Shown here one piece after another: positions 5,042-49,857 of a stretch of 64,000 nucleotides of DNA. This DNA is from Acidobacteriota bacterium (GTDB lineage Bacteria; Acidobacteriota; UBA6911), in assembly GCA_963664705.1 (NCBI GenBank), contig OY761556.1, positions 6,814,785-6,878,784 on the forward strand, read 5' to 3'. Numbering within the stretch: position 1 is the first letter of the stretch; the number at the start of each line of letters is the position of its first letter. The position numbers were made by a program, and so were the translations under genes. Under the pieces are notes generated by a model. The model did no database searches, was not told where the DNA came from, and was given only the letters and a program-made list of their open reading frames with translations.

Positions 5042-6127
5042 ATGTGGCTTGATGTGCTCATTGCGTTGATCAAAGCGCTCTTCTTCCTGTCCTGTGTGCT
5101 GACGCTGACCTCACTGCTGACATGGATGGAACGAAAGCAGTCTGCCGTCATGCAGGACCGGCTTGGTGCCAACCGCGCCAGGATACTGGGCATTCAAGGA
5201 TTCGGGTTGCCGCATATCGTGTCGGATGCCCTGAAGATGTTTTTTAAGGAAGACTATGTGCCGCCCGGCGGGGATCGGATTCTTCACACCGCCGCCCCGA
5301 TGGTTGCGCTTTTCTTCGCCCTCATGACTTTTGCCGCGATACCCTTCGGCGATACCCTTCAGATTGCCGGCCACCGAATTGATTTGCAGGTCCTTCCCTT
5401 GAATGTCGGCCTCCTGTTTGTTTTTGCCATGATGTCGCTCGGCATATACGGTACCTTCCTGGCCGGCTTCGCCTCGGACAATAAATATGCATTTCTCGGA
5501 GGACTGCGCGCTTCCAGCCAGATGATCAGCTACGAGATCACCATGGGAGCCACGCTGGTCGGACTCCTCATGATTTTTGGAAGTCTTGACCTGGCGGAAT
5601 TGAATCGGGCGCAAGGCGGCCTGCTCTGGGGCTGGCTTCCGAAATGGGGGATATTCCTGCAACCGGTCGGGTTCCTGCTGTTCGTCGCCGCCGGAATGGC
5701 CGAAACAAAGCGTATCCCTTTTGATCTGCCGGAAGGAGAATCGGAAATCATCGGGTATTTCGTCGAATACAGCAGTATGAAGTTCGGCGCGTTTTTCATG
5801 GCGGACTTTATCGAGACGATTCTCATTGCGGCGATGATCACCACGCTGTTTTTTGGCGGCTGGCAGATTCCCTATCTGCAGCCGGACGGTTTTCACCTGC
5901 CCTGGGGCTCATTCCACGCACTCCCGCATCTCCTGGTTGCGTTGCTTCAGATGGCAGCCTTTGGCCTCAAGGTTTTCTTCTTCTGCTGGTTCCTGCTGCT
6001 GATCCGGTGGACACTTCCGCGCTTCCGCTATGATCAGCTGATGCGGCTGGGATGGAAGTTCATGCTGCCGATTTCGGTTCTGAATATCTTCGTTACTGCC
6101 GTGATCCTTGTATTGATGAAGAAGTGA
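5042..6127 (+). CDS. nuoH: NADH-quinone oxidoreductase subunit H
   Basis: 361-aa polytopic membrane protein with NuoH/ND1 signatures (LLTWMERKQSAVMQDRLGANRA, MAETKRIPFDLPEGESEIIGYFVEYS). Confidence 0.9.
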   Translation: MWLDVLIALIKALFFLSCVLTLTSLLTWMERKQSAVMQDRLGANRARILGIQGFGLPHIVSDALKMFFKEDYVPPGGDRILHTAAPMVALFFALMTFAAIPFGDTLQIAGHRIDLQVLPLNVGLLFVFAMMSLGIYGTFLAGFASDNKYAFLGGLRASSQMISYEITMGATLVGLLMIFGSLDLAELNRAQGGLLWGWLPKWGIFLQPVGFLLFVAAGMAETKRIPFDLPEGESEIIGYFVEYSSMKFGAFFMADFIETILIAAMITTLFFGGWQIPYLQPDGFHLPWGSFHALPHLLVALLQMAAFGLKVFFFCWFLLLIRWTLPRFRYDQLMRLGWKFMLPISVLNIFVTAVILVLMKK

Positions 6128-6130
6128 TTT

Positions 6131-6164
6131 CGGATTCCAGATTTTAGATTCCGGATTCCAGATG
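6131..6164. repeat. degenerate 7-bp tandem array (GATTCCA-like), the left arm of an inverted pair
   Basis: cgGATTCCAGATTTTAGATTCCGGATTCCAGATGG begins 4 nt after the nuoH stop. Its reverse complement is repeated at 8106-8147. Confidence 0.75.
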
Positions 6165-6291
6165 GCATCTGACCTTGGGCCGGAGACCCGATAGGGAATA
6201 GACAGGGGCGAGCGCAGCGAATCCCCGGCCATTTTCTGGCGCGCCTATGATTGTGCAACATGGCCTGTTCAGGTAAAAAGGAAAAGAAAAA

Positions 6292-6364
6292 CTTGGAGTT
6301 TGGGTGTGGAAACCCGGAAGGAGCCCGGAGGGCGACCGAAGGGTTTCTACTCCCAAACTCCAAG
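6292..6364 (+). other. 73-nt extended hairpin in the 5' non-coding leader of the element
   Basis: CTTGGAGTTTGGG (6292-6304) pairs perfectly with CCCAAACTCCAAG (6352-6364). An inner stem GTGGAAACCC/GGGTTTCTAC has one G-U pair, and the apical part contains a GCCC-GGA-GGGC mini-hairpin. Confidence 0.7.
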
Positions 6365-6409
6365 CGCGGATGCACTCGGATAGCACAGTCCTACATATTG
6401 AAGGCGCCC

Positions 6410-7228
6410 ATGATCAATAACACCAACCTTTCTCACTGGAACAGACTCCAAGCGAAGAGCCTTGACGCTCAATTTGTTAATGAGATGATTACCGGCCTTA
6501 ACTGCTCTCCTTTCGAGGCGGAAGCTATTGTAGAGAAAGTTCATGAGGTTTACGTGCCGCTGTTTCAGACGGCGCAGGGACTTAAGCCGGGTCAGATTCA
6601 AGTGGCCGTGATCGATGCTTCGGTAGCGCCTAATGTGCCACTGGCAAAAGCCAAGCAGAGACTGGTAACCCTGACCCTTCATGCAGGTACCGAAGATATC
6701 GAGACTCGAAAAAGGGGATCCGTACCAGCTCTTCGTCAGAAACGATTGTGCCGCATGTGCCAAGAAGCATTTCAGCAAGGGGGATTGTTGACCTTGGAGG
6801 ATTTGGCCAATCTGTTCAATTGCGGCGTCCGCACTCTGGTGAACGACCTGGCGGCCTTGCGCAAACAGAGCATTGTGCCTCCTCTGCGCTCTACGACCAA
6901 GGATATGGGCCGCGCCATCACCCATCGCCAACTGATTATCACGCTCTGGATGCAAGGGCTTGAGTACTCCGAAATCGCCCGTAAGACCAATCACACCATC
7001 GACTCCGTAGCCAACTACGTGGATAAGTTTAAACGCTGTGCAGCCCTGTTTGTTTCTGGATTTGACGTGGATACAGTTGCTCTGATGGTAAAGCTTTCAA
7101 CGCCTCTGACCAAGGAATTTCAGCGTATCCACTCCGCTTGCCACGGGACTCCTCACCGTCTTCGGGAATTGGAAGATTTCCTCAAAAAAAACCGCATACC
7201 AAGCCTGCGCGGGAGGAAACGGTCATGA
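6410..7228 (+). CDS. element ORF-A: double helix-turn-helix protein, possibly DUF1670-like (from memory, unverified)
   Basis: ATG 6410 is preferred over the TTG 6251 start in the ORF track. HTH-like segments are LLTLEDLANLFNCGVRTLVNDLAALRKQ and GLEYSEIARKTNHTIDSVANYVDKFKR. It is a paralog of ORF-B. Confidence 0.7.
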   Translation: MINNTNLSHWNRLQAKSLDAQFVNEMITGLNCSPFEAEAIVEKVHEVYVPLFQTAQGLKPGQIQVAVIDASVAPNVPLAKAKQRLVTLTLHAGTEDIETRKRGSVPALRQKRLCRMCQEAFQQGGLLTLEDLANLFNCGVRTLVNDLAALRKQSIVPPLRSTTKDMGRAITHRQLIITLWMQGLEYSEIARKTNHTIDSVANYVDKFKRCAALFVSGFDVDTVALMVKLSTPLTKEFQRIHSACHGTPHRLRELEDFLKKNRIPSLRGRKRS

Positions 7229-8010
7229 TTGCCCAATCTGAGGCTCAAAAACAATTCGGCTCTGCGCGGAAGCGCTTCCTGCAGTCTTCTATTGAAAATT
7301 TTCTGGACCAGGAGTTCCCTCGCACCTTCGGACCAGTAATTCGCGAGAAAATGGCAGAAAAGATTGTGGCGCTTGTCGACCAACAACTACCTCCCAAGGA
7401 TCATCTGCGCCCTGGACAGTGTGTTTGGAATGCCGTATCCATTGCGACCCGGCCTGACAGCCCCAACTGTCGTCTTGTCCCCATAGTCTTGACGCTTGTG
7501 GATTCTTCGGATGCCGAGCAACTGGCTCGCGGAACACCCATGTCCAGAATCGCCCAAACGTCCATCGCTCGGATTTGCCGTGAAGCCTTTGAACAAGGAG
7601 CCTTGCTCTCGATGCGCGATATTGGCCTCTTAGTCTGGCGAGATAACGCCCACATCTCGCAGGTCCGGAAAAAGTGGGAGGCTGAACAGCAAACATCGTT
7701 GCCTCATGTCGGAACTATTCAAGATTTCGGCTCATGCATCACTCATAAGTCGGTCATTGTGCGCAAGGTTGTTTATGAAGGGAAAGATCCCCGTCGTGCT
7801 GCAGATGAAACCAAGCACTCGCAGAGAGCCGTCGATCGTTACCTAAAAGACTTTCATCGAGTAAGAACGTGCTTCGAACATATCCAAGATGTTGAATTCG
7901 TTATCAAAACAACAGGTCTATCCAGGCAGCTGGTAAACCAATATGTCAGAATCATCATGGAAAATGAGAAAACGTTTCCTAAAGAGAACTTGACAGGCAA
8001 GATTGCTTAA
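7225..8010 (+). CDS. element ORF-B: paralogous double helix-turn-helix protein
   Basis: GGAGG lies 7 nt upstream of ATG 7225, and an ATGA start/stop overlap with ORF-A suggests translational coupling. It aligns with ORF-A: RPGQ.., CREAFEQGALLSMRDIGLL vs CQEAFQQGGLLTLEDLANL; ITHKSVIV vs ITHRQLII; HSQRAVDRYLKDFHR vs HTIDSVANYVDKFKR. Confidence 0.72.
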   Translation: MIAQSEAQKQFGSARKRFLQSSIENFLDQEFPRTFGPVIREKMAEKIVALVDQQLPPKDHLRPGQCVWNAVSIATRPDSPNCRLVPIVLTLVDSSDAEQLARGTPMSRIAQTSIARICREAFEQGALLSMRDIGLLVWRDNAHISQVRKKWEAEQQTSLPHVGTIQDFGSCITHKSVIVRKVVYEGKDPRRAADETKHSQRAVDRYLKDFHRVRTCFEHIQDVEFVIKTTGLSRQLVNQYVRIIMENEKTFPKENLTGKIA

Positions 8011-8105
8011 ACTTCGGCGCTTTGCTCGCCGTTGGTTTGACTGGTTTGGGAAAAATACAATGCCAATTCCGGCAATGCCGGTAAATAGCGGATCCAGTCG
8101 TGGCA

Positions 8106-8147
8106 CATCCGAAAATCCGGAATCTGGAATCTGGAATCTGGAATTTT
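8106..8147. repeat. 7-bp tandem array (TGGAATC x3-4), the right arm inverted relative to 6131-6164
   Basis: catccgaaaatccGGAATCTGGAATCTGGAATCTGGAATttt abuts the stop codon (8146-8148) of the minus-strand acyl-ligase gene. Confidence 0.75.
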
Positions 8148-10860
8148 ACCTGACCATTTTTTCAATGGCTTCCCTGAGTCGCAGCGTATCCTGCAGATAG
8201 GGATCTGCCGCATCATCCGTCGATGGATGGATCGGTGGGCCGAAGGTAATCCTTACTTTGTGCGGCCGTATCCGCGCGCTGTCTCGCGGCCAGACATAAT
8301 GGGTGCCCTGGATCGCTGTTGGCACAAGAGGGACTGACAGTTCTCTCGACAGTATGGCCGCGCCCTTTTTGAATTCCTGCAAAGTTTCATCGTATGACCG
8401 CCCGCCTTCGGGGAAAATGCAGAGAATGCGTCCGCTTCTCAATCCATAGGCTCCTGCTTTCATGGCGCGCAGCAGATGCGCGTCCGGATCCACAGGAATG
8501 ATATTGGTGATGCGGGCCACCAGTTTCATAAGCCGGCTGGTGAACATGGCGCTATAGCCGACGAAAAACATGCTTCGAAACACCCGGAACGGGAGGACGG
8601 AGATCAATACGAATGCATCGAGGTAGCTTTGGTGATTAGGGCAAACCAGGTAAGGGCCTTTCGGCGGCAGTTGCGAAAGCCCGCGCACCTCGAGTCTCAG
8701 AAAGGTCTTGAACAGGAGGAAATAGAATAATCGTGCCAGCAGGTATTTGAACAGCGATACGAGCAGGCCGGAGGGCTGGAACGGTGCGGTCTCTGATTTG
8801 CCGAGCGAATCTTCGGACAGGATCTTTTTCCAGCTCTGTCGATCCTGGGATCCGCCGGGCGCGATGACGCCGGCCTGGCGTTCGAGTTTTGTGATCAAAT
8901 CCCTTATCGTGAGGATGTCTGCGCCAAAATCGTCCGACAGCTGAAAATTGAGTGTCTGCTCGAGACTGGCGAGGAGTTCCACTTTCTCCATGGAGTCAAA
9001 CCCCAGATCCAGTTCCAGGTTCATGTTCGGCTCGATCTGCACATCGCGATGATAGGTCTCGCGAATGCACTGAATGACTTCCTGTCCGACTGCGGAAGTC
9101 ATCCGTTCCATGTCCTGCCGGCTGGCTGATGTCGGGGGCGGGGCGATTCCCGAGGATGAAAGCTGACCACTCTCCACCAGTTTTTTCAGTTCGAGCCGTT
9201 TGATTTTTCGGGTCGTGGTGCGCAGCAGAGGATCGCTTTGAACCTGGTAGCTCATGAGGCGTTTGTATTTCGGGAGCTGATTCGACAGTCCCGCGATCTC
9301 GTCGCGAATTGCTTCCCGTGTATTGGCAATTTTCCTGGATTTCAAATAATCAAAATTGGGGACGACGATGGCGTGAAGCCGCTCTCCGCGCTCCTGGGCG
9401 CTGGATACGCCGATTACCGCAATCTCCTGAATGCAGGGGGATTGCGTATAATGCGCCTCGAGTTCGTCCGGGTAGATGTTTTTTCCGTTGGGGAGTACGA
9501 TCACTTCCTTTTTTCGGCCAGTGACGAAAATATTTCCCTTTGCGTCGATGCGTCCCAGGTCGCCAGAGTGAAACCATCCATCCTTCATTGCTTCGTTGGT
9601 AGCCGCCTGGTTTTTGTAATACCCTCGCATGACCATCGGACCGCGTATCACAATTTCGCCAGTCCCGGTTTCGTCGGGTGAGATGATTTTTACTTCGGTC
9701 CCGGGCAGTGCCGGCCCCACCGATCCCACCATGTTATTTTCCACTCGCGTGACGGCGCATGCCCCGGTGGTTTCGGTCAATCCGTAGCCCTGAAGAATTG
9801 TGAAGCCCATGTCATGGAAGTCCTGGGCAACCCGTGGGTCGAATGCGGACCCGCCGCTGACGAAAAGGCGGAGCCTGGGGCCGAAGCTGTGGTGGATTTT
9901 GGCAAACAGGAGCCGGCCCAGGTTGATTCGGAGAAAGCGCATGCTGAATCTGTTCAGGCGCAGCATGCCTTTGTAGAGTTTGCGAACCCGTGGAGGCTGT
10001 TTCGCAAGCTCCTCTTCAATCCTGTTGTGAAACAGGTAGAAGAATTGCGGGACGGTGGCCAGAATGCTGATGCCGGCTTCCTCGAGCGCCTGGAGAATCT
10101 CGGAACGCTTCAGCGTGTCCGCGAAAACAACCTGTCCGCCGTGGTAGAGCGGTACCAGCACGTTGATCACCGAGGCCAGTACGTGTTGAAGCGGGAGCAG
10201 GCAAAGCAGCGCATCGTGTTGATCCACGCGGATGGCCCGGAAGATGGACTGCAGTTCTCCCATGATGTTGGACTGCGTCAGCATCACGCCCTTCGGATTT
10301 CCGGTTGTTCCGGAGGTGTAAATAATGGTGACCGTGTCTGCGGGCTGGACTTCCGGGAGCGCGGGAGGGGCGTTGAGCCCGGATGCCCAGTCGATGAGTC
10401 CGGCGAGTTCTGATCGAGCGTCCCGGTCTCCGGCTACGGGATCAAAGGAAATAACGCGTCGCGGAGGACGGGAATCCTTCAGCGCTTCATGGAGCTTGGC
10501 CGCAAGGGATCCGCTGACAAAGACGACATGCGTTTCCGAATCATCCAGCAGACGCCTCCACTCCGCCGGGGAGATCTGGGTGTCAAGCGGAACGGCCACC
10601 ATGCCCGACAGATAGATTCCGAGGTAGGCAATTACCCATTCCGGGCGATTTTCGGACTGGATGGCCACGCGACTGCCGAGTTTCAGATCCAGTGCCAGCA
10701 ATCCCTGTGCGACCGACAGGGCTTGCCGGTGTGCTTCCTTGTAGGAGACCGTCGGATAGCCTTGTGGAGTTTTCAGCCGGAAGGCAATTCGGTCCGGAAA
10801 CTGCAGGACGATTTTCTCAAATTGCTCGTTAAAGGTTCGTGGAGCGTCTTGTGCCTTCAA
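8146..10860 (-). CDS. tri-domain fusion: AMP-dependent acyl-CoA/ACP synthetase, then a phosphopantetheine-binding carrier domain, then a PlsC-type 1-acylglycerol-3-phosphate acyltransferase
   Basis: 904 aa. AMP-binding motif IIYTSGTTGNPKGVML; carrier-domain serine motif LDLGFDSMEKVELLASLE; acyltransferase H(x)4D motif CPNHQSYLDAFV plus FPEGGRS. Confidence 0.85.
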   Translation of the reverse strand: MKAQDAPRTFNEQFEKIVLQFPDRIAFRLKTPQGYPTVSYKEAHRQALSVAQGLLALDLKLGSRVAIQSENRPEWVIAYLGIYLSGMVAVPLDTQISPAEWRRLLDDSETHVVFVSGSLAAKLHEALKDSRPPRRVISFDPVAGDRDARSELAGLIDWASGLNAPPALPEVQPADTVTIIYTSGTTGNPKGVMLTQSNIMGELQSIFRAIRVDQHDALLCLLPLQHVLASVINVLVPLYHGGQVVFADTLKRSEILQALEEAGISILATVPQFFYLFHNRIEEELAKQPPRVRKLYKGMLRLNRFSMRFLRINLGRLLFAKIHHSFGPRLRLFVSGGSAFDPRVAQDFHDMGFTILQGYGLTETTGACAVTRVENNMVGSVGPALPGTEVKIISPDETGTGEIVIRGPMVMRGYYKNQAATNEAMKDGWFHSGDLGRIDAKGNIFVTGRKKEVIVLPNGKNIYPDELEAHYTQSPCIQEIAVIGVSSAQERGERLHAIVVPNFDYLKSRKIANTREAIRDEIAGLSNQLPKYKRLMSYQVQSDPLLRTTTRKIKRLELKKLVESGQLSSSGIAPPPTSASRQDMERMTSAVGQEVIQCIRETYHRDVQIEPNMNLELDLGFDSMEKVELLASLEQTLNFQLSDDFGADILTIRDLITKLERQAGVIAPGGSQDRQSWKKILSEDSLGKSETAPFQPSGLLVSLFKYLLARLFYFLLFKTFLRLEVRGLSQLPPKGPYLVCPNHQSYLDAFVLISVLPFRVFRSMFFVGYSAMFTSRLMKLVARITNIIPVDPDAHLLRAMKAGAYGLRSGRILCIFPEGGRSYDETLQEFKKGAAILSRELSVPLVPTAIQGTHYVWPRDSARIRPHKVRITFGPPIHPSTDDAADPYLQDTLRLREAIEKMVR

Positions 10861-44260: not shown

Positions 44261-44347
44261 CGGAGGAAGTAGGATTCGAACCCACGAGGGGGTTACCCCC
44301 CTAACGGTTTTCAAGACCGCCGCCATCGACCACTCGGCCATTCCTCC
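44261..44347 (-). tRNA. tRNA-Ser (anticodon UGA)
   Basis: The reverse complement GGAGGAATGGCCGAGTGGTCGATGGCGGCGGTCTTGAAAACCGTTAGGGGGGTAACCCCCTCGTGGGTTCGAATCCTACTTCCTCCG has a 7-bp acceptor stem (GGAGGAA/TTCCTCC), anticodon loop CTTGAAA, a long variable arm, and a GGTTCGAATCC T-arm. CCA is not encoded. Confidence 0.9.
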
Positions 44348-48066: not shown

Positions 48067-48244
48067 TTTTCTGGCGCGCCTATGATTGTGCAACATGGCC
48101 TGTTCAGGTAAAAAGGAAAAGAAAAACTTGGAGTTTGGGTGTGGAAACCCGGAAGGAGCCCGGAGGGCGACCGAAGGGTTTCTACTCCCAAACTCCAAGC
48201 GCGGATGCACTCGGATAGCACAGTCCTACATATTGAAGGCGCCC

Positions 48245-49063
48245 ATGATCAATAACACCAACCTTTCTCACTGGAACAGACTCCAAGCGAAGAGCCTTGA
48301 CGCTCAATTTGTTAATGAGATGATTACCGGCCTTAACTGCTCTCCTTTCGAGGCGGAAGCTATTGTAGAGAAAGTTCATGAGGTTTACGTGCCGCTGTTT
48401 CAGACGGCGCAGGGACTTAAGCCGGGTCAGATTCAAGTGGCCGTGATCGATGCTTCGGTAGCGCCTAATGTGCCACTGGCAAAAGCCAAGCAGAGACTGG
48501 TAACCCTGACCCTTCATGCAGGTACCGAAGATATCGAGACTCGAAAAAGGGGATCCGTACCAGCTCTTCGTCAGAAACGATTGTGCCGCATGTGCCAAGA
48601 AGCATTTCAGCAAGGGGGATTGTTGACCTTGGAGGATTTGGCCAATCTGTTCAATTGCGGCGTCCGCACTCTGGTGAACGACCTGGCGGCCTTGCGCAAA
48701 CAGAGCATTGTGCCTCCTCTGCGCTCTACGACCAAGGATATGGGCCGCGCCATCACCCATCGCCAACTGATTATCACGCTCTGGATGCAAGGGCTTGAGT
48801 ACTCCGAAATCGCCCGTAAGACCAATCACACCATCGACTCCGTAGCCAACTACGTGGATAAGTTTAAACGCTGTGCAGCCCTGTTTGTTTCTGGATTTGA
48901 CGTGGATACAGTTGCTCTGATGGTAAAGCTTTCAACGCCTCTGACCAAGGAATTTCAGCGTATCCACTCCGCTTGCCACGGGACTCCTCACCGTCTTCGG
49001 GAATTGGAAGATTTCCTCAAAAAAAACCGCATACCAAGCCTGCGCGGGAGGAAACGGTCATGA
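48245..49063 (+). CDS. element ORF-A (copy 2)
   Basis: Translation is identical to 6410-7228. Confidence 0.7.
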   Translation: MINNTNLSHWNRLQAKSLDAQFVNEMITGLNCSPFEAEAIVEKVHEVYVPLFQTAQGLKPGQIQVAVIDASVAPNVPLAKAKQRLVTLTLHAGTEDIETRKRGSVPALRQKRLCRMCQEAFQQGGLLTLEDLANLFNCGVRTLVNDLAALRKQSIVPPLRSTTKDMGRAITHRQLIITLWMQGLEYSEIARKTNHTIDSVANYVDKFKRCAALFVSGFDVDTVALMVKLSTPLTKEFQRIHSACHGTPHRLRELEDFLKKNRIPSLRGRKRS

Positions 49064-49845
49064 TTGCCCAATCTGAGGCTCAAAAACAATTCGGCTCTGC
49101 GCGGAAGCGCTTCCTGCAGTCTTCTATTGAAAATTTTCTGGACCAGGAGTTCCCTCGCACCTTCGGACCAGTAATTCGCGAGAAAATGGCAGAAAAGATT
49201 GTGGCGCTTGTCGACCAACAACTACCTCCCAAGGATCATCTGCGCCCTGGACAGTGTGTTTGGAATGCCGTATCCATTGCGACCCGGCCTGACAGCCCCA
49301 ACTGTCGTCTTGTCCCCATAGTCTTGACGCTTGTGGATTCTTCGGATGCCGAGCAACTGGCTCGCGGAACACCCATGTCCAGAATCGCCCAAACGTCCAT
49401 CGCTCGGATTTGCCGTGAAGCCTTTGAACAAGGAGCCTTGCTCTCGATGCGCGATATTGGCCTCTTAGTCTGGCGAGATAACGCCCACATCTCGCAGGTC
49501 CGGAAAAAGTGGGAGGCTGAACAGCAAACATCGTTGCCTCATGTCGGAACTATTCAAGATTTCGGCTCATGCATCACTCATAAGTCGGTCATTGTGCGCA
49601 AGGTTGTTTATGAAGGGAAAGATCCCCGTCGTGCTGCAGATGAAACCAAGCACTCGCAGAGAGCCGTCGATCGTTACCTAAAAGACTTTCATCGAGTAAG
49701 AACGTGCTTCGAACATATCCAAGATGTTGAATTCGTTATCAAAACAACAGGTCTATCCAGGCAGCTGGTAAACCAATATGTCAGAATCATCATGGAAAAT
49801 GAGAAAACGTTTCCTAAAGAGAACTTGACAGGCAAGATTGCTTAA
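49060..49845 (+). CDS. element ORF-B (copy 2)
   Basis: Translation is identical to 7225-8010. Confidence 0.72.
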   Translation: MIAQSEAQKQFGSARKRFLQSSIENFLDQEFPRTFGPVIREKMAEKIVALVDQQLPPKDHLRPGQCVWNAVSIATRPDSPNCRLVPIVLTLVDSSDAEQLARGTPMSRIAQTSIARICREAFEQGALLSMRDIGLLVWRDNAHISQVRKKWEAEQQTSLPHVGTIQDFGSCITHKSVIVRKVVYEGKDPRRAADETKHSQRAVDRYLKDFHRVRTCFEHIQDVEFVIKTTGLSRQLVNQYVRIIMENEKTFPKENLTGKIA

Positions 49846-49857
49846 ACTCCGGCGCTT

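Follow-up and report, generated by a model that had tools for sequence, protein, structure and literature searches.

A conserved hairpin in the leader of a two-gene DUF1670 element, a possible mimic of the element's own hairpin-loop target

Positions 6246 to 8012 on the plus strand of the 64,000-nucleotide stretch of DNA analyzed here (the window) are occupied by a 1,767-bp element, TATGATTG...GCTTAAAC. Its sole genes encode multi-HTH paralogs: ORF-A (6410-7228, plus strand) specifies a protein of 272 aa that matches DUF1670 (Pfam PF07900, E 4e-40), and ORF-B (7225-8010, plus strand), the start of which overlaps the ORF-A stop, specifies a DUF1670 paralog of 261 aa (Pfam, E 1e-43) that shares 27% identity with the first. 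A second copy of the element lies at 48081-49847 on the plus strand, and a third lies at a distance of about 220 kb in this genome, a single contig of 6.89 Mb; the three copies are 100% identical over exactly the span given above. All of them are on the same strand, within 264 kb (window 6246, window 48081, and genome position 6,600,672). GC skew puts the replication terminus near 2.0 Mb and, together with DnaA boxes, the origin near 5.29 Mb, so that in each copy the top strand is the template of the lagging strand.

Searches of ORF-A and ORF-B against Pfam, NCBIfam, PHROGs, and PADLOC returned DUF1670 or weak HTH-like matches only, and a PDB sequence profile search with the element proteins gave no match. 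The AlphaFold model of ORF-B (pLDDT 80) contains a beta hairpin plus helical HTH-type modules; a fold search of the PDB with this model yielded no significant match (best E 0.056). When DUF1670 is fused to something else, the partners are only further DUF1670/HTH units, plus one DnaG-type zinc finger, and none of the fusion proteins of the representative library was seen to carry a known nuclease or recombinase domain. The element proteins have nucleic-acid-binding modules only, with no recognizable catalytic domain. The library proteins P0152, P0159, P0179, and P0174 include one in which DUF1670 is joined to the zinc finger (DnaG-type CHC2), as well as multi-unit forms, with three DUF1670 units in 930-950 aa or two units in 530 aa.

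ORF-B has 798 homologs at E <= 0.001, the majority of which are found on metagenome contigs of 1-2.5 kb, as expected because a repeat breaks assemblies. The DUF1670 element family is present in 3 of 60 relatives and in 1 of 300 sampled genomes of the phylum, and close relatives of the element are assigned by their genome records to very different phyla. Since relatives occur in distant phyla and are yet sparse within its own, the distribution is that of a mobile, horizontally spread element. No relatives were found in a plasmid collection, and the search of the host genome for solo ends or MITE derivatives, including deletion derivatives that keep the ends and the leader hairpin described below, was equally negative. 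A full-text literature search for DUF1670 or PF07900 found no paper, a result that by itself does not prove absence; we regard the two-gene element as an undescribed family of jumping genes.

The ends of the element are imperfect inverted repeats and are conserved across 47 homologous loci. The left one (6246-6278, plus strand), the conservation of which is visible in the alignment, starts with TATGAT (6246-6251). The right end (7990-8012, plus strand) consists of TTGACA (7990-7995) and a 17-nt spacer with a small 5-bp palindrome, GGCAA..TTGC, and has no long hairpin. TTGACA is found in 54 of 67 distinct right ends, the 17-nt spacer in 63 of these 67, and TATGAT in 48 of 50 distinct left ends. 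When abutted, the two ends give a predicted near-consensus sigma-70 promoter (TTGACA-N17-TATGAT), the right end supplying its -35 half and the left end its -10 half, an arrangement that would imply a circular or tandem intermediate in which ORF-A and ORF-B are switched on. A transcript from this junction promoter would start near nt 13.

The element inserts into small hairpins. In the 47 homologous insertions, the 5-9 nt located 5' of TATGATTG pair with the sequence past the right end, after a 3-nt loop. At copy 1, the insertion has split the 5' arm GCGCC (6241-6245, plus strand) from the loop TTC and the 3' arm GGCGC (8013-8020, plus strand), with pairing between 6241-6245 and 8016-8020. The arms differ by site (GCGCC, GCCCC, GTCCC, GCCCT, CACCC, CCCCCACCC, ATTCAGCTCT, and others) and the loops are mostly TCC, TTC, or TAC; because the flanking stems vary between sites, they belong to the target DNA and not to the element ends. 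Uninterrupted paralogous sites are present in the same genome, e.g. ...CTATTTTCTGGCGCGCC-TTA-GGCGCTTTGC and ...GCGCC-TCC-GGCGCTTAGTG, with the pattern GCGCC-TNN-GGCGC. Given that the flanks pair around a loop and that uninterrupted sites exist, each insertion separates the 5' arm of a small G+C hairpin from its loop, in a specific orientation and with no target duplication. Identical elements are found in different targets (L042/L043).

The repeat module that bears the target matches the Rfam family Acido-Lenti-1 (RF01687; 49880-49931, minus strand, 44.8 bits), of which the genome contains 36 matches. The target hairpin corresponds to the 3' hairpin of Acido-Lenti-1, the insertion sites having been assigned to the module by sequence inspection. 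The left flank of copy 1 (about 6200-6245) also belongs to the target-bearing MITE module. Acido-Lenti-1 has been listed as a probable small RNA (PMC2864571); its behavior in this genome suggests a REP-like repeated DNA element. For this 'abundant family of unknown function', we suggest a reading, in this genome at least, as repeated DNA whose 3' hairpin serves as a landing site.

The leader that separates the left end (6246) from the ORF-A start codon (6410) contains a 73-nt hairpin at 6292-6364 (plus strand), defined by its fold and by covariation among homologs, with a family-defined motif at 6294-6362. A preliminary description, made from the sequence of this DNA, had placed the hairpin in this interval, as we do, and had given the leader as 165 nt; its length is 164 nt. 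The hairpin starts 46 nt inside the left element end. RNAfold predicts a single dominant fold, with stems of 13 bp, 10 bp (including one G.U), 2 bp, and 4 bp and an energy of -50 kcal/mol, which was reached by none of 200 dinucleotide shuffles (mean -23.9, z -8.35). Folding with DNA parameters gave z -7.8 for the top strand and z -7.2 for the bottom strand. The very stable structure that had been described at these positions is therefore borne out, both as RNA and as single-stranded DNA, and so is its recurrence in copy 2 (48127-48199, plus strand), where the sequence is identical; a third identical copy is also found in the genome.

In order to compare this structure within the family, we extracted the leaders of homologs from metagenomes and MAGs and aligned 46 distinct hairpins, gap-free and anchored on the tip; these homologs are of metagenomic origin and, being related, do not count as independent. 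Hairpins of similar size (67-73 nt) occupy the matching leader position in these 46 distinct homologous elements, and they are palindromic over their whole length, down to a 3-nt center. Scored as 21 bp, a 3x3 loop, 2 bp, a 2x2 loop, 4 bp, and a triloop, the alignment has 93.2% of its cells paired, versus 67.8% after column shuffles and 30-49% with slid partners. Compensatory changes are found in all 21 pairs of the lower stem, the covariation score of 0.64 (versus 0.17) was reached in 0 of 500 shuffles, and RNAalifold, applied to the alignment, independently returned the same structure. The outermost stem pair lies 27-30 positions from the tip in most members. Consensus folding of the whole leader recovered the main hairpin and nothing further. 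The preliminary description had made its reading depend on conservation or covariation of the stem in homologous elements, and this is what the family displays, every position covarying and the apex being near-invariant. Because the stem covaries throughout and the apex hardly changes, comparative evidence marks the hairpin as a functional structure of the two-gene element.

The hairpin is built from two unlike parts. The lower stem has variable arms (5' arm, 6292-6313; 3' arm, 6343-6364; both on the plus strand), which pair with each other according to the alignment and its covariation, and they carry a conserved, purine-rich apex of 29 nt (6314-6342, plus strand; CCGGAAGGA-GCCC-GGA-GGGC-GACCGAAGG, core at 6323-6333). 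From the tip outward, the apex comprises GCCC-GNA-GGGC, a tandem G.A/A.G, 2 bp, and a 3x3 GGA/GGA loop, which is followed by the long stem. The GCCC-GNA-GGGC core is invariant in 46 of 46 hairpins, all of which close the GNA triloop with C-G; only the middle loop base is free (T in 36, A in 5, G in 4, and C in 1). In the two-pair step, an A-U pair covaries to G-C (pair -4/+4), and the middle position of the GGA/GGA loop has A-U, C-G, and G.U variants. In one member (L100), the whole GGA/GGA loop is turned into three Watson-Crick pairs, which places the apex in a symmetric register. The pairing scheme of the preliminary description is reproduced when the single sequence is folded, but the family comparison shifts its inner part to this symmetric register. 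A kink-turn apex, which a CUGG/CUGG register would give, was considered and is ruled out by the L100 pairs, by the middle-position variants, and by the -4/+4 covariation. Typical RNA tetraloops are absent from the tip.

Rates of change also differ between the two parts. Pairwise divergences in the 5' arm of the lower stem are 0.15, 0.31, and 0.46 for the three bands of highest protein identity, and those at synonymous third positions are 0.16, 0.31, and 0.38 (overall range 0.16-0.52). The apex diverges by 0.05-0.10 and the terminal repeat by 0.04-0.26. The lower stem is thus constrained in pairing and length only, its arms drifting at about the synonymous rate, and the apex is the most constrained non-coding part of the element, under strong purifying selection. 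Within the stem, G.U combinations are about as frequent as A.C combinations (25 vs 20), i.e. without asymmetry, although these counts are low. The distance from the hairpin to the left end (sd 4.7) is steadier than that to the start codon (sd 7.8).

A covariance model derived from the hairpin alignment (R1) scored 45-93 bits on the plus strand of the elements and at most 39 bits on the minus strand, with one match per element, always in the leader. The hairpin of copy 1 scored 72.5 bits, and across its own genome the model matched the three element copies only. None of the Rfam 15 covariance models matched window positions 5500-9000 or the leaders of five homologous loci at E <= 1, and the hairpin represents a new, strongly supported structured leader motif absent from Rfam. 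Elsewhere in the window, at 44261-44347 on the minus strand, an unremarkable tRNA gene whose variable arm is long matches the Rfam tRNA model (56.9 bits).

The tip of the hairpin is related to the insertion target. Its loops GTA, GGA, GAA, and GCA are complementary to TAC, TCC, TTC, and TGC, the set of target loops, and GCCC-GNA-GGGC as a whole reads as an antisense image of the target (stem, TNC loop, stem). A likeness between the apex and the MITE module had been noticed earlier; it is real and more specific than had been stated, the resemblance being to the antisense of the target hairpin loop.

The structure is not universal. Some apparently intact relatives lack the apex (L020/L068 and L107), and more distant ones lack the hairpin altogether (L024/L026 and L111); for this reason, not every DUF1670 element needs it. 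At the same leader position, sister lineages have either a plain perfect hairpin lacking the apex or a different, longer hairpin (L020/L068, 2111-2157; L107; L064, 183-402; L075, 501-737). The loop that remains in L020 is the inverted complement of a CTGGAA repeat.

Being placed between the junction promoter and the RBS, the hairpin would lie inside the 5' UTR of the junction-promoter transcript. Just 5' of the Shine-Dalgarno sequence GAAGG (6400-6404), the leader also contains an internal inverted copy of the left terminus (6381-6390, plus strand; consensus TTGCACAATCA): the terminus is TGATTGTGCAA, its inverted copy is TTGCACAATCA, and the full-leader fold pairs the two and covers the RBS region. 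One compensatory change in this pairing (L019/L066) was read by eye from the alignment. Positions 6246-6258, together with the flanking target arm, are complementary to 6381-6407, before and over the Shine-Dalgarno sequence. Fold-back protection against read-through is classical in IS10 and IS50, and by analogy the pairing of the left terminus with the pre-RBS segment looks like a fold-back silencing of read-through transcripts, as the 5' arm of the fold-back would be present only in transcripts that come in from beyond the element. The 5 nt before the start codon complement the 5' arm of the target in 17 of 50 elements versus 8.0 +/- 2.3 in permuted sets, a difference confounded by kinship and by the likeness of the Shine-Dalgarno sequence to the complement of a C-rich arm.

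A simple promoter/terminator scan found nothing at the hairpin, and neither the internal nor the antisense position considered below showed a sigma-70-like site. On the plus strand, the 10 nt that follow the stem contain 10% T; no T tract directly follows the stem, and an intrinsic plus-strand terminator was rejected. The transcriptional insulator proposed in the preliminary description is therefore not supported in the form of intrinsic termination on the plus strand. In this copy, TTTTTCTTTT comes after the stem on the minus strand and looks terminator-like; family-wide, the 5' side of the hairpin is 44% A and the tract is interrupted in many members.

We tentatively favor a reading in which the hairpin is the sense-strand recognition structure of one DUF1670 clade, a target mimic that the element's own proteins would bind as part of their mRNA leader and that would play a role in feedback. 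The tip mirrors the target, so proteins that find the tips of hairpins with any stem would be its natural readers, and the hairpin is probably a docking site for them. The stem of about 21 bp, arbitrary in sequence, would hold up the invariant purine-rich tip, and the multi-HTH proteins, which would need to recognize the tips of target hairpins, would also bind this built-in mimic. We infer such binding, its occurrence on RNA, and its effect; the relevant complex would form on the leader of the junction-promoter transcript, giving feedback control of ORF-A and ORF-B synthesis or loading the nascent protein in cis. Ribosomal-protein and ThrRS operators offer precedents for feedback by way of a look-alike of the natural ligand, and proteins that bind RNA classically do so at internal loops that are rich in purines and contain G.A and G.G pairs. 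The purine-rich loops of the apex and the position of the hairpin in the 5' UTR, on the sense strand, speak for action in the leader RNA. Against it stand the lack of an RNA-specific signature, G.U not being enriched over A.C, the steadier spacing to the left end, the apparently intact relatives without apex or hairpin, and the fact that HTH proteins usually bind DNA. In addition, the best-known examples of C-GNA-G triloops with adjoining sheared G.A pairs are DNA mini-hairpins of unusual stability (PMC3201870, PMC13037366). In a more general form, which we consider somewhat doubtful, an element that finds its sites by the shape of a small hairpin would carry an internal copy of that shape on a stalk, acting as RNA or as extruded DNA, and through it HTH-only proteins would sense or control their own activity.

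Several of these points bear on the idea that the target-like hairpin acts as DNA, its top strand being extruded so as to enhance transposition or serve synapsis, to act as an immunity decoy, or to offer a site for nicking or priming, a role that is doubtful but nearly as likely as action in the leader RNA. Extrusion would occur either as single-stranded DNA, from the template of the lagging strand, or as a cruciform in a small supercoiled circle, and would be favored by a palindrome that extends over all 67-73 nt. Covariation is of the Watson-Crick type only, the tip has the hallmark of the DNA mini-hairpins just mentioned, the proteins consist of HTH arrays, and their target is itself recognized as a DNA hairpin, with any stem sequence. 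Arms that are neutral yet remain paired would fit arm-to-arm templated correction, and a position set more tightly relative to the left end than to the ATG would also suit a DNA site, as would the lagging-strand orientation of the copies, which is weak evidence since three copies are too few to establish a bias. On the other hand, the junction promoter implies a double-stranded circle and not a single-stranded intermediate, the genome gives no sign of a need for the hairpin in cis, as it holds no deletion derivatives or MITEs with ends and hairpin, and no nested insertions into the hairpin apex were found in it. Moreover, the hairpin lies inside a transcribed leader, so that an RNA role comes free. 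Such a role may not call for a dedicated element protein at all: as a 5' stabilizer, an RNase III site, a fold-back clamp, or an antisense or outward terminator, the hairpin would be a structure only. Leader structures of IS200, IS10, and IS50 work in such ways; the stem sequence is free and its length is near two helical turns; in the fold of the full leader, a long-range helix over the RBS region surrounds the hairpin; and some relatives have plain perfect or other long hairpins at the same place. By our reading, a weak internal promoter (TTGTGC-N17-TAAAAA, 6251-6279) would start an RNA 4-6 nt before the stem, and the A-rich 5' side, with TTTTTCTTTT after the minus-strand stem of this copy, may offer an antisense terminator. 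The promoter scan nevertheless recognized no sigma-70-like site at these positions, the A-rich tract is interrupted in many members, the plus strand has no U tract, and such a role would leave unexplained why the apex is conserved beyond the terminal repeats and keeps to the sense strand. We consider a purely structural role unlikely.

A guide function, which the preliminary description had listed among its options, would make the leader RNA pair with target and donor DNA in the manner of a bridge RNA, with the hairpin as a scaffold. The layout would fit: a junction promoter precedes about 150 nt of structured non-coding left end and then the genes, and insertion into REP-like hairpins is orientation-specific. 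The segment ahead of the RBS shows complementarity to the left terminus, and the complement of the target arm recurs in the last 5 nt upstream of the ATG more often than in permutations. Nonetheless, target arms vary but the internal loops of the hairpin do not, copies of an identical element occupy different targets, the complementary stretch overlaps the Shine-Dalgarno sequence and the elements compared are not independent, and neither a DEDD recombinase nor an Rfam match was found, which makes this option very improbable. Still less probable is a palindromic passenger without function, i.e. a small mobile palindrome that landed in the leader and was kept perfect by DNA-level correction. The neutral drift of the arms and the distant DUF1670 elements without a hairpin would agree with such an origin; the strong purifying selection on the apex, the maintained size and position, the orientation that is fixed in all members even though the arms could invert it, and the confinement of the motif to the element argue against it.

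Among known mobile elements, the IS200/IS605 family shares orientation-specific, hairpin-related insertion without target duplication and a hairpin of conserved shape near the left end, and the leader stem-loops of IS200 block read-through and hide the RBS, as the leader structure here may likewise do. These elements nevertheless encode a Y1 HUH transposase (TnpA), whereas the proteins studied here give DUF1670 or weak HTH matches only; they have short imperfect hairpins near both ends and no terminal inverted repeats, whereas the present element has one hairpin and ends that are imperfect inverted repeats and that form a junction promoter. With no HUH transposase and a single hairpin of 67-73 nt located 46 nt inside the end, the structure is not a subterminal hairpin of the IS200/IS605 type, as had been considered earlier. 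The IS110/IS1111 family, for which Durrant et al. 2024 reportedly described the bridge RNA of IS621, is similar in that its promoter exists only on abutted ends, its left end includes about 150 nt of structured non-coding sequence, and insertion is orientation-specific, into REP-like hairpins, with little or no target duplication. IS110 elements differ by their recombinase, which has a DEDD (RuvC-like) and a Tnp domain, and by bridge loops that are programmable and covary with target and donor; here, the loops change little or not at all among 46 sequences, a target is recognized by its structure, with any stem, and not by its sequence, and Rfam gives no match. Structured leader elements are central to the control or guidance of several IS families (IS10, IS200, and the IS110 bridge RNA).

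Other hairpins offer partial parallels. Integron attC sites are strand-specific hairpins with a free stem sequence and a conserved structure, and they are recognized as folded DNA; they differ in having boxes (R''/L'' and L'/R') at the base and extrahelical bases, whereas the base is variable and the apex conserved here, and the element has no integron integrase and carries its hairpin internally rather than at a cassette boundary. Ribosomal-protein and ThrRS operators resemble the proposed device in that a protein controls its own mRNA via a copy of the structure that it normally recognizes; in the present case, an RNA would imitate a DNA hairpin as the natural ligand, and its binding is putative. 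The fold-back of IS10/IS50 has its counterpart in the left terminus and its pre-RBS inverted copy, which would pair only in transcripts arriving from outside, and this parallel concerns the helix that encloses the hairpin, not the hairpin itself. The tip, with its free middle base and adjacent sheared-type G.A, shows exactly the pattern of the d(GCGNAGC)/d(GNA) triloops of mini-hairpin DNA (PMC13037366, PMC3201870); those are physico-chemical models, whereas the tip described here caps a 21-bp stem in a mobile element, and the likeness is one of sequence pattern.

As the most conserved non-coding feature of the element, and one that resembles the target, the hairpin is its most accessible experimental entry point. 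If the more general reading, with the mimic acting as RNA or as extruded DNA, is true, the hairpin would be a 'target mimic' control device, described for no transposon, and would provide a handle on how proteins without a known catalytic domain move DNA. With regard to these proteins, the alignment of both paralog groups shows invariant residues at R17, G64-Q65 (in a PGQ motif), T90, R116, E120, and Q124 (ORF-B numbering), and also at D167, G169, and H174 (in a D.G...TH motif), H198, Y206, F210, and R212. If the proteins are catalytic, the residues that are invariant across the DUF1670 paralogs would be candidates for mutagenesis.
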